Origin: a virus
DNA length: 64,000 bases
Virus record (IMG/VR): IMGVR_UViG_3300044878_000051
Coordinates: 1 to 64,000 of that record
Strand: one strand, 5' to 3'
Notes under the pieces: model-generated
Database searches by the model: none
Told to the model about the DNA's origin: nothing
What the model saw: the letters and a program-made list of their open reading frames with translations, nothing else
Position numbers and translations under genes: made by a program
Shown here: in pieces, positions 2,369-34,378 of the stretch
How the letters are laid out: every line of letters starts with the position of its first letter
How positions within the stretch are numbered: position 1 is the stretch's first letter

Positions 2369-2940
2369 CAGTAGACTCCACCGCGACGACTAACCTCAGC
2401 AGCAATGACCTGAGCCATTGGACTGTGTTCTTTCGGCACTTCATTCTGAATCTGTTCAGGGGTCGTCAGGTCACGTTTAACGGTGGCCCGACGGTTGATG
2501 CGATCCAAGCTACGGAACAGACGAGAACCGCTAACCTGAGTCGTCATGTGTTGACGTGCCATCGGGTAGATCTCTTTGGCAAACTGATCCAGCAGCCTCA
2601 AGTCTTCCACGGGGACGTCACGACGGTTCGGGTCTTTGGTGACTTCCTCAGTCCAGTCGTTGATGTGTTCCACAATCCACTGGTAGATCTGCTTCGACTC
2701 TTCAGGATGCAACAGGGACAGCGCAGCCCCATCAGCCATGTGCTGAGCCATCTGAGCAACAGTCAGGTTGGCTTTCACAGTAGACTGAAAGGTCTGGGCG
2801 TCAACGTCCGCATCACCAGAGGTGTACAACCCAAATTTCTTAACGTACTCTTGGGAGTACAGGTACATCGCAGGAATCATGCACTCCACAAAGTAGTTGA
2901 AGATTTTGTAGGCGGCTGTGTGATGCGGCTGTTCCATCAT
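2368..2940 (-). CDS. Conserved hypothetical protein (phiKZ gp100-like)
   Basis: Start moved to MMEQPHH, just after the upstream stop; synteny. Confidence 0.6.
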   Translation of the reverse strand: MMEQPHHTAAYKIFNYFVECMIPAMYLYSQEYVKKFGLYTSGDADVDAQTFQSTVKANLTVAQMAQHMADGAALSLLHPEESKQIYQWIVEHINDWTEEVTKDPNRRDVPVEDLRLLDQFAKEIYPMARQHMTTQVSGSRLFRSLDRINRRATVKRDLTTPEQIQNEVPKEHSPMAQVIAAEVSRRGGVY

Positions 2941-2942
2941 GA

Positions 2943-4334
2943 TTAGTAATCTCGCAAAGCAGTTTTGATGAGGATGAACAGAATTGGAATGTAGTAGAAC
3001 CGTTCCAAGTTGTTCCAACGTTTGGCCGTCTGTACCAGATTCAGCAAGGTCGGTTTGTGCATCGACTCGCCATTCAACGCACACAGCACCAAGTGCTCCA
3101 GCTTGGACTGTTCCTGTGGGATGTCTTCATAGAACGCCTTGGACAGCACGTAGAAGTCACCCTTGTTCACTGGATGGATGTCTGGCAACGCCTCGATCCC
3201 CACAGGAGCCTCTGAGGGCGCGTAGTGGAAGCCTTTCAGCTCTTTGCTGACCAACACACGGCGTAGCTCACGATTGCGCGCTATGCCCGGCAGGAGGCGT
3301 CCTGGGACTAGGGGGTCTTGAACCGAGTACTGGGTGTCGACGACTTGGAGGGTCGAACGATCCATCGGGTACACAACATCCTGAATCCCGCTGTAATAGA
3401 TGCCATCAAACATGGCCGCTTCTGTGAACAGACTCGAAGGCGACAGACCAGCCGTTTGGAAGCACAGCTCACGGATGTCTGGGTTCAGTGTGGTCAGACA
3501 CGTCCAGAGGTTGTGTTCCTTGTAGCGGACGTTACCATCCACGTTCAAGGCCCGGATCTTCATGATGGTGTTGTTGTCGCTGTTGTTCAGGATCGACAGC
3601 AAACCAATCACCATGAATGGATCGTAGGTGATGTTGACCTGGTTCGGAACGATCAGGGTCGCGTACTCGATGTTGAAGAAGTCCGCCAGATACTGGAACA
3701 ACAGATTACCGTAACCGGCATTCAGTTGTGCGATCTGATCGAAGTCCGAAGACGCCATGACCGGGTTCTGACCGTGGTGAATAAAGTCCCGTACGAACAC
3801 GGACTCCTTCACAACTTTCTTGGCCAAGTCATTCTTGTATTCAGACGTCAGGTAGTCACGCAGGGTGTAGTCGATCTGGTAGCAGGTGTCTTTGAAGATC
3901 GCTTTCTTTTCAGTCCGCGTAATCGTAAACACGCCCACACGCCCGTCACCAATGTCAGCGAGGAACACGTCCCCGTTGTTTGGCTTGACCCCTGGGTACA
4001 ACGTCGCCGAACCCGTGACAATCGCGTTCCGGTTGTTGTCGTCTTGTTGATAGCCCAGTTCAGTCTGGACTTTCATCTCCAAGTGACGCACCAAACGGTA
4101 CTGTTGGTACACGGCCTGCTGGTTGAGTTGCAGGTCGGAGGTTTCGTTGTCGACGTCCAGCACCTGTTGGTAGTAGTCGACTGTCCAACTGGCGCCTTCA
4201 ATGTGAGTCAACAGACTCGACATCGGGATGTAACGAGTGTCCACCACCGCGTTACGAACTTCAGCCGCAATCGCCGTTGGTTCGACTGGGACTTCCTTAG
4301 GCGGGACGGTGGGTTTAGTATTCAAGATGGGCAT
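2943..4334 (-). CDS. Virion structural protein (phiKZ gp99-like)
   Basis: 463 aa ORF, tightly coupled operon, synteny. Confidence 0.6.
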   Translation of the reverse strand: MPILNTKPTVPPKEVPVEPTAIAAEVRNAVVDTRYIPMSSLLTHIEGASWTVDYYQQVLDVDNETSDLQLNQQAVYQQYRLVRHLEMKVQTELGYQQDDNNRNAIVTGSATLYPGVKPNNGDVFLADIGDGRVGVFTITRTEKKAIFKDTCYQIDYTLRDYLTSEYKNDLAKKVVKESVFVRDFIHHGQNPVMASSDFDQIAQLNAGYGNLLFQYLADFFNIEYATLIVPNQVNITYDPFMVIGLLSILNNSDNNTIMKIRALNVDGNVRYKEHNLWTCLTTLNPDIRELCFQTAGLSPSSLFTEAAMFDGIYYSGIQDVVYPMDRSTLQVVDTQYSVQDPLVPGRLLPGIARNRELRRVLVSKELKGFHYAPSEAPVGIEALPDIHPVNKGDFYVLSKAFYEDIPQEQSKLEHLVLCALNGESMHKPTLLNLVQTAKRWNNLERFYYIPILFILIKTALRDY

Positions 4335-5837
4335 TTACTTGTCCCTCCTAGCAATGATGCCTGTGGCACCCACGGTGAAGAAACGACGTGACTGATCACG
4401 CTTACCTTTGTTAATCAGATCCCACAGCCAATCCTTCGGAATCAACTGACCCCCGATGACGGGAATGTTGTCCACCCGAGGGTAGAGTGTACGGATCAAT
4501 TCGATCGCAAAAGGCGGGTCCTTACGAATCCGGTCAATGGCTTCTTTGGTCAAGATACTCAAGTCCGTCACCAGACACAGACGCAAGTGTTGCACGTCAC
4601 GCAGAGTCAGGTCATACGAACTACGGACATTCAAGTCAGCATCCATCAACACCGTTTTATCCGGCATCGGTTTGTCCCAACGGTACAGTTGGAAGTTGAA
4701 CACCGACTGGGTGTACTTACTGATGAACGGGGCTTCCTTAATGAGGAAGTGTAACGTCGCAGGAGAGAACTCGAAGTCACCGAGGTTACTCAGGTTCACC
4801 ATGTCACGCGGATCGTTTTCATCCACACCCAACAGTAGTTCCAACACCGGGGCGGTACGGGGTGGAGTCCAGTTCGGCATCCAATCGTCAATCGCGGGAA
4901 TCCGATTGCGGGCCAACGGTTGTACACGCTCCTTATACAGTCGAGTGTAGTAGTCCATCAGGAAGCGTTCGTTAGACGGACGACGTGCACGGTTAGCCAG
5001 TTCGTAAACCGGGACAGTAGGACGGAACCGCTCATCCACCATCTGGTTGTGAATAGCCACAGGGTAGTGAGCCATTACAGCGACCACCTTGTCGTACATG
5101 AAGGTGTAGTCGAATCCTGTTTCCCATGGGGCCCCTTCGCCAGCCTTCGAACCTTTGTCGGGTTGAGCCACGAAGTTAAAGCCGCCTACGATGCTCGCCT
5201 GACGTTCTGCGATCGCCAACAGGGGTTGGGTTCCTGCTTGCGTCCGAAGCGTTGTAGCGCGTCCTGAGATGTGTTCCTGCACCCATTGCTCTAGCGTCTC
5301 ACCGTAACCTGCGACTGCTTCACGCATTTCGTAGATTTGGTGGAGGATCAGAGCAATGGAGTCCGGGATTGGGTAATGGTAGTCGATCTCGTGTAACAGT
5401 TCTGCACGCCCTTGTGAGGAACGTACCCGGAACTCGTCTCGCCACTTCTCTGCTTGGGTTCTGTCCTGAGCACGGTAACGGAACGAGATAGTTACTTCAC
5501 AAGAAACGTAGACAGGCTTAACGAACACATCGAGGCGTTGGTCGTAGAAGACGAACTGAACGTTGTCTTTCTTTACCGCTGAGGTCAGCGTACGGTCTTC
5601 GATGTACTGCTCGTCAGCTTCGATGTTGATGCGACCATTGAACGGGAACTTGTTCTGGATGCCGTTATCAGTCAGTGTGGTTTGAGGTTGGAATTGAGAC
5701 TCGGCCATGCCGAAGAACTCAAAGCCAGTGTCATGCGGAAGACGCATGATCTCAATCAACTGTTTCGCTACCTGAGTAATGGCTGGGCGCGTAATCGAGC
5801 TATACGTTTCTGGAAGTTCAACAACGATGTTAGGCAT
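4335..5837 (-). CDS. Virion structural protein (phiKZ gp98-like)
   Basis: ~500 aa ORF; start MPNIVVELP follows a GGAG RBS; synteny. Confidence 0.6.
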   Translation of the reverse strand: MPNIVVELPETYSSITRPAITQVAKQLIEIMRLPHDTGFEFFGMAESQFQPQTTLTDNGIQNKFPFNGRINIEADEQYIEDRTLTSAVKKDNVQFVFYDQRLDVFVKPVYVSCEVTISFRYRAQDRTQAEKWRDEFRVRSSQGRAELLHEIDYHYPIPDSIALILHQIYEMREAVAGYGETLEQWVQEHISGRATTLRTQAGTQPLLAIAERQASIVGGFNFVAQPDKGSKAGEGAPWETGFDYTFMYDKVVAVMAHYPVAIHNQMVDERFRPTVPVYELANRARRPSNERFLMDYYTRLYKERVQPLARNRIPAIDDWMPNWTPPRTAPVLELLLGVDENDPRDMVNLSNLGDFEFSPATLHFLIKEAPFISKYTQSVFNFQLYRWDKPMPDKTVLMDADLNVRSSYDLTLRDVQHLRLCLVTDLSILTKEAIDRIRKDPPFAIELIRTLYPRVDNIPVIGGQLIPKDWLWDLINKGKRDQSRRFFTVGATGIIARRDK

Positions 5838-6421: not shown

Positions 6422-6462
6422 AAAAAACCAAAAAAAAACACTGCTAGACAAGCCAGTGTTTT
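6422..6462 (-). terminator. Intrinsic terminator
   Basis: AAAACACTG/CAGTGTTTT stem plus long T tract on the minus strand. Confidence 0.7.
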
Positions 6463-20801: not shown

Positions 20802-20851
20802 AAGGCAAAAAAAAAAAAGAAGGGGGCGCAAGCTCCCTTCTTTATGCCGTC
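20793..20851. terminator. Bidirectional terminator
   Basis: AGAAGGGGGC/GCTCCCTTCT stem, A12 tract, TATGCC on both strands. Confidence 0.9.
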
Positions 20852-21515: not shown

Positions 21516-21555
21516 AAAAAAAAAAGAAGGGGCGTGAACCCCTTCTTTATGTCGT
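21516..21555 (-). terminator. Intrinsic terminator (probably bidirectional)
   Basis: AGAAGGGG/CCCCTTCT stem with A10 tract. Confidence 0.85.
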
Positions 21556-26280: not shown

Positions 26281-26310
26281 AAAAAAAAAAAGAGGGTGGT
26301 TAGCCCTCTA
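26281..26310 (-). terminator. Intrinsic terminator
   Basis: AGAGGG/CCCTCT stem with long T tract. Confidence 0.75.
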
Positions 26311-28193: not shown

Positions 28194-28640
28194 TTAATAA
28201 AGGATGATGCTCACGGGTAACGGGGTTTCCGTCAAGTGCTTCTCAACCAACGGCTTGAAGTTCTTGAAGTAATCCAATTGACCTTGACCACATCCCAATG
28301 CTGGAATGCCGAGTTCGGTAATCCCTAGCTCTTCGTAACGGGCCACCAAGTCTTCGAAGCCTGCAATCAGGTACTCTTCTTTACTAGGGTTACAGAAGTG
28401 TTCCTTGGTCGGGAACAGCAAGACTTGCTGACAGGAATCTGGAATGGGGTAAACCAGAAGCTTACCCACATCCAGTTGTCCAGTCTTCAGAGCCACCTGA
28501 TAGAACGCAAGAAGGCCAGGGGTCCTGTGTTTAAATGCTGCGGCCAACCCGTTCCCGAGTGTGCCCCAGGTATTGACTGGACAGGCTACAGTTTGCAGCC
28601 CACAAGTAAAGAGGGAACCCTCACCTTCAAATACGATCAT
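28194..28640 (-). CDS. Macrodomain ADP-ribosylhydrolase, DarG/TARG1-like
   Basis: G.LF, PVNT.G.LG.GLA..FK, FPTK.H, PALGCG.G.L motifs. Confidence 0.85.
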   Translation of the reverse strand: MIVFEGEGSLFTCGLQTVACPVNTWGTLGNGLAAAFKHRTPGLLAFYQVALKTGQLDVGKLLVYPIPDSCQQVLLFPTKEHFCNPSKEEYLIAGFEDLVARYEELGITELGIPALGCGQGQLDYFKNFKPLVEKHLTETPLPVSIILY

Positions 28641-29062
28641 TTCTTCGGACCCTGTTTGTTTTGTTCAAGCTGTTTGATCTGCTTCTCCGTAGGGATCAGC
28701 GACCGTGCAGCGTCTTCTGAGCAAATGCGCAAGATGAGACGATGGATCTCACGAGGGAGGTCTAGGAACTCCGTCAATGTGAAACCCCAATTCTTGTGCA
28801 CCTCATTAACATTGAACTGGTAAATAGCGCGATACAGACCACCGTATTCGTGGTAGTCCTCTTTGACGTGTTTACCCACCAAAGCCAACGGGCGATTCTG
28901 CTCCGTAGAGTGATCGTAGATCCCGTAGTCTTCGTCGTACGCTTCCCGCAGCACTAGTTGGGCTGTCATGCTATCCAAGTTACTGGCGTTCTCAAGCAGC
29001 CCTTCTAGCCGTCCTTTCTGACCTATCCGAGACAAACCGAAGCCGGGGAGTGCGGTGTGCAT
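28637..29062 (-). CDS. Conserved protein, likely C-terminal extension of the upstream ORF via -1 frameshift (T4 gp51/gpT-like)
   Basis: WGFTLTEFLDLP motif; frame open back to the T9 run at 29136-29144. Confidence 0.6.
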   Translation of the reverse strand: MHTALPGFGLSRIGQKGRLEGLLENASNLDSMTAQLVLREAYDEDYGIYDHSTEQNRPLALVGKHVKEDYHEYGGLYRAIYQFNVNEVHKNWGFTLTEFLDLPREIHRLILRICSEDAARSLIPTEKQIKQLEQNKQGPKK

Positions 29063-29085
29063 GTCCCCGACTCGTGGGTCGATCT

Positions 29086-30624
29086 CTAGAGGTAAGTTCT
29101 TGTAAGGACTTTGCTGGTGCGTTGGTAGAGAAGGGAAAAAAAAACTCTCGCAACGTCCAGAGGGATGAGGTGAGGGTGACGTTTCTCCGTCTCAGACGCC
29201 TGAGGGAACTGGCAGGCCGGGCAGTTATGCTTCGGCAGGGCAACCAGCGACACGGTGGCGTTGTCGATGAACTTGCCGATTTCTTCGATGAAGCGGTTAC
29301 GAATTTCTTCGTCGCCGGAGAACAGAGCCGCCAGACTTTCGATGGTGTCTCGATCGTCGGAGATCTCGGTGTCCGGCACCAGCACTTCACCCACCCAGTG
29401 ACCATACTGACGCATGGTGGTCAGACGACCTTGGTTGGTGATGTACTCGTCGCGCTCGTTACCCTTCAACGGAACCTGGAACGCGTTCTCCATCATCTGG
29501 ACAATCGAGTCGATCCAACTGAAGCCGGAGTTCTCGTAGTCCTGGATTACAGGAGTGCGCAGGTTCATCGAAACGGTAGGAGTCAGCTCAACCAGCTTCA
29601 CGCCACCACGGATGTGCTCTTCTTCGTAACGCTTGATGTCCTCTGGGGTCATCCGTTGTTTACGCTGAGTCATCCGCTTACGCTGCCACTCGGACAGGGA
29701 ACGGTTGTCGGTGAAGGTGAGCTTGCCGAGATCCAGCAGCTCTTTGATCAAGTGCTGACACGAGCCTTCGACGTTGGCGCAGGCTTGTACGTACGGATAA
29801 CCGTTCGGGTAGATCGCCAGTGCCAGGCCCCACAAGATCGTCGGAATGTCCGTGACCTTGATGATCGACTTGAGGTAGTCGATGTTCAGCTCTTGGGCGT
29901 TGGTGTCGAACACGTACTGGAATGCGAAGTTCAGCAGGTAGCTGATCTGGTAGACCGACGTGTTGGAGAAGATCATGCCGTTGGTCAAACGACCCAGCGT
30001 GGTCTTGTCGTTGGCGATCCGACGTTCCAGTTCCAGGATGGCCGACTCAGGCGGAGTCTTGAAGCTCAGCCAGATACCGGTGTGCCACAGAGGCACTTGA
30101 ACCAGAGAACCCAGGCCAGTAGCCGCAGCCACACGCAGTACAGCACGTTCACCAGTCAGGACCGAACCGCCGTCACCGAACTTAGGACGGGAAGCACCGA
30201 TCTTCTCGCCTTCGAAGTCGACGAACTGTTGCCAGTCAGAACCAACCCGTTCCAACGAGGCCGCCAGTGGGTTGCCACGCAACAGGGTTGCTTGAGCCAG
30301 CTTCAGCTCTTGCGCCCACAGGCGCATCTTGGCATCACCGGAAGCATTGAGGTTCGGGTAGTTGTCGATCAACTCGTTCAAGTCGAAAGCGTCACCACCG
30401 AGCAACGACAGGTGTTCGTTGTCAGCATCGAAGTCGTACTTGGCAACGTCTTTCTCCGGCACCGGTTTCGAGTGCGGGAAGGTCTGCGTGACGTTGGCGT
30501 TGGTACGCTTGGTTTCGAAACCAGTCGGCGGAGTTGGTTCCTCCGGCTTCTGTGCTGGCTTCAGTTCAGGCGCAGGAACTACTTCCTTTTCTACGCCTTC
30601 CTTGTTTTGGTCTTCAGTGGACAT
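29086..30624 (-). CDS. Conserved core protein (phiKZ gp77-like), candidate tail/baseplate assembly chaperone
   Basis: 512 aa, two Cys pairs incl. CPAC, near-terminal VFF encoded by GTT TTT TTT. Confidence 0.6.
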   Translation of the reverse strand: MSTEDQNKEGVEKEVVPAPELKPAQKPEEPTPPTGFETKRTNANVTQTFPHSKPVPEKDVAKYDFDADNEHLSLLGGDAFDLNELIDNYPNLNASGDAKMRLWAQELKLAQATLLRGNPLAASLERVGSDWQQFVDFEGEKIGASRPKFGDGGSVLTGERAVLRVAAATGLGSLVQVPLWHTGIWLSFKTPPESAILELERRIANDKTTLGRLTNGMIFSNTSVYQISYLLNFAFQYVFDTNAQELNIDYLKSIIKVTDIPTILWGLALAIYPNGYPYVQACANVEGSCQHLIKELLDLGKLTFTDNRSLSEWQRKRMTQRKQRMTPEDIKRYEEEHIRGGVKLVELTPTVSMNLRTPVIQDYENSGFSWIDSIVQMMENAFQVPLKGNERDEYITNQGRLTTMRQYGHWVGEVLVPDTEISDDRDTIESLAALFSGDEEIRNRFIEEIGKFIDNATVSLVALPKHNCPACQFPQASETEKRHPHLIPLDVARVFFSLLYQRTSKVLTRTYL

Positions 30625-34323: not shown

Positions 34324-34378
34324 GCGGCATAAAGCCAAAAAAAAAAGCAGGGGTGCGAGCCCCTGCTTTTATGCCGTC
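34324..34378. terminator. Bidirectional terminator, TATGCC tails
   Basis: AAAAGCAGGGG/CCCCTGCTTTT stem. Confidence 0.9.

Follow-up and report, generated by a model that had tools for sequence, protein, structure and literature searches.

The stretch of viral DNA analysed here (64,000 nucleotides, hereafter the window) is part of a 94-kb virus record of the IMG/VR database (IMGVR_UViG_3300044878_000051). Its minus strand harbors two consecutive open reading frames, ORF1 and ORF2, whose arrangement around a run of nine T (T9) points to a programmed -1 frameshift. The features of the locus are listed in Table 1. ORF1 ends in ...DVARVFFSLLYQRTSKVLTRTYL followed by its stop codon, and the T9 run is situated 16 codons before this stop. 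In the -1 frame no stop codon occurs between the T-run and the ATG of ORF2; the sequence reads FFFPSLPTHQQSPYKNLPLEIDPRVGD-MHTALPG. A shift at the run would join 496 residues of ORF1 to 166 residues of the -1 frame, resulting in a predicted fusion of 662 aa (amino acids) with the junction peptide ...VFFFPSLPTHQQSPYK. An earlier note, made from the sequence of the window, had proposed such a shift and the open frame into MHTALPG; upon re-reading, its coordinates for the run (29136-29144), the distance of 16 codons, the peptide and the length of 662 aa are all correct. Its remark that ORF2 has a weak ribosome binding site also holds, as the upstream GGGGA is only 2-3 bases away from the ATG, a poor spacing for a Shine-Dalgarno (SD) sequence. 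The T9 is the sole run of at least eight T inside a gene in this part of the window.

Table 1. Features at and around the candidate recoding site, in coordinates of the window.
Feature	Position	Strand	Description
ORF1	29086..30624	-	512 aa; zero-frame product; phrog_4585, E 3e-111
Slippery heptamer T_TTT_TTT (GT-T TTT TTT)	29137..29143	-	encodes the conserved FF, residues 495-496
T9 homopolymer containing the heptamer	29136..29144	-	within GCG AGA GTT TTT TTT TCC
Dual-coding overlap	29086..29136	-	zero frame: C-terminal amphipathic helix SLLYQRTSKVLTRTYL and stop; -1 frame: start of Pro/Ser/Thr-rich linker
Stop-free -1-frame linker, ORF1 stop to annotated ORF2 ATG	29063..29085	-	no stop in the -1 frame of all 73 non-redundant loci (+1 frame: 24)
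-1-frame extension	28637..29137	-	166 codons and stop; disordered linker, H-x4-FG, helical domain
Annotated ORF2	28637..29062	-	141 aa; -1 frame relative to ORF1; distal part of the extension
Macro-domain gene	28194..28640	-	PF01661, E 1e-8; neighbour, outside the recoding unit

ORF1 matches phrog_4585 over its full length, and ORF2 matches phrog_12109 (PHROGs). According to a tblastn search, ORF1 is present in 218 phage records, including phiKZ (PHIKZ077), PhiPA3 (gp074), Goslar, RAY and PCH45, and ORF2 is found directly downstream in 57 of the 218. The homologues of ORF1 are gp77 in phiKZ, gp074 in PhiPA3, gp081 in Goslar and gp267 in RAY; the name gp77 also occurs in the Goslar and PCH45 papers, where it denotes other proteins and not the ORF1 homologue. 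ORF1 corresponds to cg18, a core gene of the nucleus-forming phages (Chimalliviridae) that is listed as hypothetical (supplement of 10.1101/2023.02.24.529968).

The comparative set consists of 96 loci, 16 from GenBank chimalliviruses and 80 from IMG/VR contigs, among them phiKZ gp77, PhiPA3 gp074, Goslar gp081, RAY gp267 and PCH45; 73 of the loci are non-redundant. In 94 of the 96 loci, the conserved Phe-Phe codons carry a run of five to nine T (T5-T9), usually at a distance of 30-62 nt from the ORF1 stop and of 139 nt in PCH45. In these 94 loci the -1 frame remains open for 128-170 codons, compared to 1-86 codons for the +1 frame. The stretch from the run to the FG motif spans 23-45 codons; it is free of stops in the -1 frame of all 73 non-redundant loci and in the +1 frame of 24. 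The -1 extensions of these 73 loci are homologous, they align throughout and share FFYP at the site, H-x4-FG, AQ..L.E.YE..YGI.DH, PL.LV and EFL.LPR. Past the Y-P in the overlap follows a poorly conserved linker rich in Pro, Ser, Thr and Glu. The length of this linker varies widely, hence the -1 frame has been kept through many independent insertions and deletions, and the relation between ORF1 and extension is -1 in every lineage. The conservation of the T-run and the open linker therefore includes phiKZ gp77 and PhiPA3, homologs to which the earlier note had pointed for a check.

These patterns also bear on the possibility that the run is a homopolymer sequencing error and that the true gene is one continuous ORF (with T10 or T8). 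Homopolymers are prone to such errors, and the GenBank relative RTH11 seems to carry one. Against this, three further and independent assemblies of metagenomes contain the same T9 (identity of their proteins to ORF1: 93%, 93% and 74%), so that an assembly error is excluded. The approximately 70 nt after the T9 are identical or nearly so in these three IMG/VR contigs from other samples, and the relative with 74% identity has 21 additional nt in its linker, which is nonetheless open and in frame. Furthermore, all 94 loci with T5-T9 retain two separate frames, with no fused case among them, and the conserved helix of the zero-frame tail terminates at the stop and is probably homologous to the C-terminus of T4 gp26. 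We consider a sequencing error extremely improbable; as judged from the aligned sequences, the two-frame arrangement is the product of neither chance nor homopolymer error.

The two exceptions among the 96 loci are GenBank records with evident indels, RTH11 and RVTF4. Xanthomonas phage RTH11 (OQ790161.1; positions 2870-2900 of locus L008) has T7 where its sister LucasX has T8, with the conserved FFTLLGQR tail out of frame and an artificial ORF of 627 aa, probably a homopolymer error in the deposited sequence. In Pseudomonas phage RVTF4 (PQ015378.1; positions ~2780-2835 of locus L016) the extension changes frame once more compared to Psa21, which likely reflects an erroneous indel, or else a genuine mutation, within the -1 extension.

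A further characteristic of the extension is that it lacks a start of its own. In 60 of the 73 loci, the -1 frame has no ATG, GTG or TTG on the way from the run to the conserved H..FG motif. An ATG before the motif is found in five loci, and an SD-like sequence together with a start in two. An exhaustive profile search with the extension yields 1650 clusters. Among the best 150 of these, the small ORFs called as genes are all 97-186 aa long, are truncated to varying degrees at the N-terminus and have starts scattered over profile positions 2-60. The missing start therefore results in GenBank annotators and gene callers beginning the small gene at arbitrary internal codons. For example, PHIKZ076.4 of phiKZ (80 aa) covers no more than the C-terminal half of the gp77 -1 extension, comprising its final 80 codons; in the phiKZ record AF399011.1 (positions 2661-3176 of locus L002) the 219 nt preceding the PHIKZ076.4 ATG have an open frame and are homologous, with no annotation. 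A joined coding sequence is annotated in none of the 16 GenBank records, and no report of this frameshift was found in the literature on phiKZ-like phages. Longer proteins that contain ORF2 were not found by a word-based search, and no in-frame fusion exists among the best 150 of the 1650 profile hits.

The absence of starts has to be weighed against an arrangement of two independent genes, with ORF2 translated from the ATG at 29062 or by reinitiation and the T-run merely representing two Phe codons. The ORF2 of the window does have an ATG, also present in close relatives, which counts against recoding; all GenBank records annotate two genes, and PHROGs keeps separate families. Two genes are nonetheless very unlikely, as no start codon precedes H..FG in the majority of lineages given above, the ATG falls after the conserved His in the 74%-identical relative, the invariable -1 relation with its stop-free frame differs from the +1 frame, and both the TTT codons and the T preceding them are under synonymous selection even in GC-rich phages, as detailed below. 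From these comparisons, the annotated ORF2 is very probably the -1 extension of ORF1 rather than an independent gene. Some independent initiation of ORF2 may occur in the window phage.

Selection at the slip site is visible at the level of nucleotides. The Phe codons at the run are TTT in 126 and TTC in 17 cases (88% TTT), compared to 391 and 684 (36%) elsewhere in ORF1. The preference persists in the 35 phages with a GC content of at least 55%, where TTT and TTC occur 62 and 7 times at the run versus 78 and 405 times elsewhere. In 62 of the 73 loci (85%, versus a background of 26% for T in third positions), T is the last base of the codon preceding the first TTT, although the residue encoded by this codon varies (T, V, L, I and others). 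T_TTT_TTN is found in the same phase in 59 of the 73 non-redundant relatives, and a canonical X_XXY_YYZ heptamer in 60 (T_TTT_TTT in 43, T_TTT_TTC in 15, T_TTT_TTG and G_GGT_TTT in one each). Run lengths are mostly T7-T8. Additional T are found almost exclusively at the 5' end of the run and in the phase of the heptamer, which favours a ribosomal slip over a plain requirement for length.

The same fusion could also be made by transcriptional slippage, the RNA polymerase of phage or host adding one U (or dropping two) in the U9 and ribosomes then translating the altered mRNA without a shift. The T9 of the window is as long as bacterial runs known to slip, examples of which are reviewed in PMC5009743, no ribosomal stimulator was found in the folding and SD-like tests described below, and the difference between T7 in RTH11 and T8 in LucasX indicates that the run is error-prone at some level. 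However, 14 of the 73 loci have only T5-T6, too short for an efficient slip of the polymerase, yet with the same architecture, and a pure length requirement would be indifferent to the side and phase on which a T is added. Since 71 of the 73 relatives have runs of T5-T8, transcriptional slippage cannot be the family-wide mechanism or account for the lineages with T5-T7, and we regard it as an unlikely origin of the fusion; it may add to the yield at the T9 of the window phage. On this comparative evidence it is highly probable that some -1 recoding event gives rise to a trans-frame fusion. The recoding site is most likely real and family-wide, and the shift most likely ribosomal. The proposal of the earlier note, a programmed -1 shift that joins a core pair of jumbo phages, is thus strongly supported by the conservation in 94 of the 96 loci and the codon bias.

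Several observations weigh against a ribosomal slip. The sites of 13 of the 73 lineages are non-canonical (N_TTT_TTT, such as G_TTT_TTT, and G_GTT_TTT). T5 runs occur in five loci, four of which are among these 13. A stimulatory element, either a downstream structure or an upstream SD-like motif, is usual at -1 frameshift sites, albeit not obligatory. Here, the predicted folding downstream of the run equals that of controls (mean z-score -0.44 versus -0.31), with no RNA structure found, and SD-like motifs upstream are present in 5 of the 73 loci, compared to a background of 9%, and hence are not enriched. The slip site would then probably work alone and with modest efficiency, as in lambda G/GT.

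The zero-frame tail of ORF1 is conserved as well. After the FF it has a helix-like pattern (L, L, Q, R/K, I/V/L, R/Q/K, I/L), and AlphaFold predicts it as the last helix of ORF1 (residues 491-511). In 47 related pairs, substitutions in the overlap are distributed over zero-frame codon positions 1/2/3 as 37/80/127, compared to 222/177/468 upstream, and substitutions are overall about half as frequent in the overlap as upstream; both the phase and the halved rate indicate dual coding. In the clade of the window the -1 frame is better conserved than the zero frame: eight differences to the 74%-identical relative alter the -1 frame at a single residue, conservatively, and the zero frame at seven. 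Because the tail is a conserved helix, the short and the extended product are probably both made, as far as can be judged from the sequences.

Taken as a mechanism, ORF1 and ORF2 would form one recoded gene. Most ribosomes would reach the ORF1 stop and produce the short protein with its conserved amphipathic helix. A fraction would slip back by one base at the U_UUU_UUU coding for Phe-Phe and thereby replace the last helix by a flexible linker and a helical domain of ~150 aa, giving the longer isoform. By analogy to known systems, the two isoforms would probably act together at a fixed ratio in the assembly of hub or tail, the extension recruiting a second partner. This combination of a recoded gene, a ribosomal slip and an assembly role of the kind played by T4 gp26 and gp51 is, as a whole, the likely best explanation of the data.

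The closest counterparts are tail assembly chaperones (TAC). Xu, Hendrix and Duda reportedly described, in 2004, a conserved -1 frameshift in the genes for lambda gpG/gpGT, P2 gpE/E+E' and Mu gp41/42. As in these phages, a slip by -1 close to the 3' end of a morphogenesis gene would yield both a short and a C-terminally extended product; the extension lacks its own start, and no strong stimulator is present. The P2 site T_TTT_TTG recurs in one relative, SNUABM_54. Unlike in lambda, P2 and Mu, the upstream part is 512 aa long rather than ~100-140 aa, and the locus is not situated between the tube and tape-measure genes. Comparison of ORF1 and ORF2 with lambda G/GT and P2 E/E' gives no Pfam TAC hit and no match of sequence or fold in the PDB, although a remote relation could escape these lists. 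With proteins that appear unrelated, a fourfold larger upstream part and no tail module, the pair is not assigned to the G/GT family, and the chaperone logic is an analogy. Of the 'G/GT system' proposed in the earlier note, the logic of two isoforms made by a -1 slip therefore stands as an analogy, and membership of the family is not supported.

Two further systems offer partial parallels. In T7, the capsid gene 10A/10B has a -1 frameshift at G_GUU_UUC, which provides a minor isoform with a short extension. The T7 case resembles ORF1 in having a -1 shift at a U-rich site near the stop and an extended isoform, and the non-canonical G_GTT_TTT of two relatives (L074 and L079) resembles the gene 10 site. 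In contrast to ORF1, 10A/10B is a capsid protein and is not known as a core feature of a whole virus family. Escherichia coli dnaX also produces two isoforms (tau/gamma) from a homopolymeric slippery heptamer, in dnaX at a fixed ratio. There, the shift truncates the protein and needs an SD-like element and a hairpin, whereas here it would extend the protein and neither element was found.

A functional assignment comes from the predicted structure of ORF1. The AlphaFold2 (AF2) model has a mean predicted local distance difference test score (pLDDT) of 84.7 and a predicted template modelling score (pTM) of 0.84. In BFVD, a collection of predicted structures, the model matches many proteins of 225-312 aa that rank below the rows of its own family. 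About 15 of these are named baseplate hub subunit, baseplate hub assembly protein (T4-like) or hub assembly chaperone, with E-values of 1e-4 to 0.05, probabilities of mostly 0.9-1.0 and template modelling (TM) scores of 0.4-0.56 on the target. PF12322, the Pfam family of T4 gp26 and gp51, weakly matches 4 of 60 family members (best E 5.6e-5), and an ESM Atlas cluster with PF12322 in 24% of its members scores 0.91. The C-terminal consensus of the family is CPxC...PxLIPLDVxxxFFxLLxQR. T4 gp26 ends in ...CPECGKTHAHVIRGLKEFFELL (CPEC...FFELL), collinear with the CPxC...FFxLL end of the family. Both proteins are listed as hub assembly chaperones in a review of the T4 tail (PMC3004832).

The BFVD matches, the common CxxC...FFxLL end and the weak PF12322 hits suggest reading ORF1 as an assembly factor of the gp26/gp51 type. 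No PDB chain matches ORF1 by sequence, and the paper on the Goslar virion model has no mention of gp81 or gp82, which fits a non-structural assembly factor; T4 gp26 and gp51 resemble ORF1 in this apparent absence from solved virion structures as well as in the predicted fold. The likeness of ORF1 to T4 gp26 claimed in the earlier note is thus seen at two levels, the C-terminal motif and the fold match of the AF2 model. Its second comparison, of a motif in ORF2 with gpT, E' and gp51, does not survive, as hhalign assigns probabilities of only 0.1-1% against T4 gp51 and gp26.

A number of results speak against the link to gp26 and gp51. It is based on matches between predicted structures, the ORF1 query itself being an AF2 model, and on a short motif. 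Alignment of the family with gp26 by hhalign, using T4-like sequences only, gives a probability of 8% over 54 collinear C-terminal columns, and the locus is located outside a tail module. The ORF1 of the window has no Pfam hit. With PF12322, six-frame searches gave no hit in this genome or in the records of phiKZ, PhiPA3, Goslar, RAY and PCH45; the ten divergent relatives scanned singly left out the four weak hitters. Foldseek yields no PDB hit better than E = 1 for ORF1, and VIA-align wide returns only generic helices (Z at most 5.6). T4 gp26 and gp51 (208 and 249 aa) are also considerably shorter than ORF1. On balance, the models make it reasonably probable that ORF1 is an enlarged, distant hub assembly factor of the gp26/gp51 type.

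T4 gene 26 (positions 3803-4429 of locus L101, minus strand) likewise yields two nested products, gp26 and gp26', the second of which originates from an internal start and not from recoding. The possibility that gene 26 uses the same slip was rejected: its FF is encoded by TTC TTT, it has neither slip site nor extension, unlike the ORF1 family, and its -1 offset from gene 25 reflects an ordinary TAATG overlap.

The model of the extension has a pLDDT of 83.3; its helical domain ends in a helix of ~33 residues, and the linker has low pLDDT. In BFVD the model has matches solely within its own family, and in the PDB solely to generic long helices. Two BFVD entries, Myoviridae sp. ctLnO19 (687 + 171 aa) and Tenacibaculum phage pT24 (306 + 73 aa), match the models of both ORF1 and the extension. 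As both are non-chimalliviruses, these model matches suggest that the gene pair, and perhaps the frameshift too, may extend beyond the nucleus-forming family.

We note that phiKZ-like nucleus-forming phages are intensively studied and used in phage therapy, while cg18 is still 'hypothetical' and the ORF downstream is annotated inconsistently. A family-wide recoding would correct the annotation of hundreds of genomes and add a protein isoform to the core proteome. It would also provide a testable function, as a chaperone of hub or tail assembly, for two orphan families, one of which comprises more than 1600 sequence clusters, and constitute a second, evolutionarily independent case of isoform ratios set by frameshifting in tail morphogenesis. 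In engineered phages, 'correction' of the homopolymer or codon optimisation of the gene would abolish one isoform. More tentatively, and with doubt prevailing, hub chaperones of the gp26/gp51 type might be the counterpart of G/GT in large contractile-tailed phages, the chimalliviruses having independently evolved a stoichiometry set by frameshifting on an unrelated protein. If so, the role of the extension would be to tether another partner in assembly (the tube initiator, the tape measure or a hub protein), and the assembly of long tails would generally need a fixed ratio of short to long chaperone, instead of this being peculiar to one protein family.

The neighbourhood of the pair comprises the macro-domain gene, a gp78-like gene, a homologue of the head protein gp79 and genes for RNA polymerase subunits. 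The ATG of the macro-domain gene overlaps the TGA of the extension (ATGA); in Goslar, a macro-domain gene is found in the same position with an overlap of 50 nt. Runs of at least eight T give 19 overlapping matches in the window, compared to 2 expected. Apart from the T9 described here, they are located at 6430-6438, 20807-20818, 21516-21525, 26281-26291 and 34337-34346, all on the minus strand, and are probably terminator tails of minus-strand genes.

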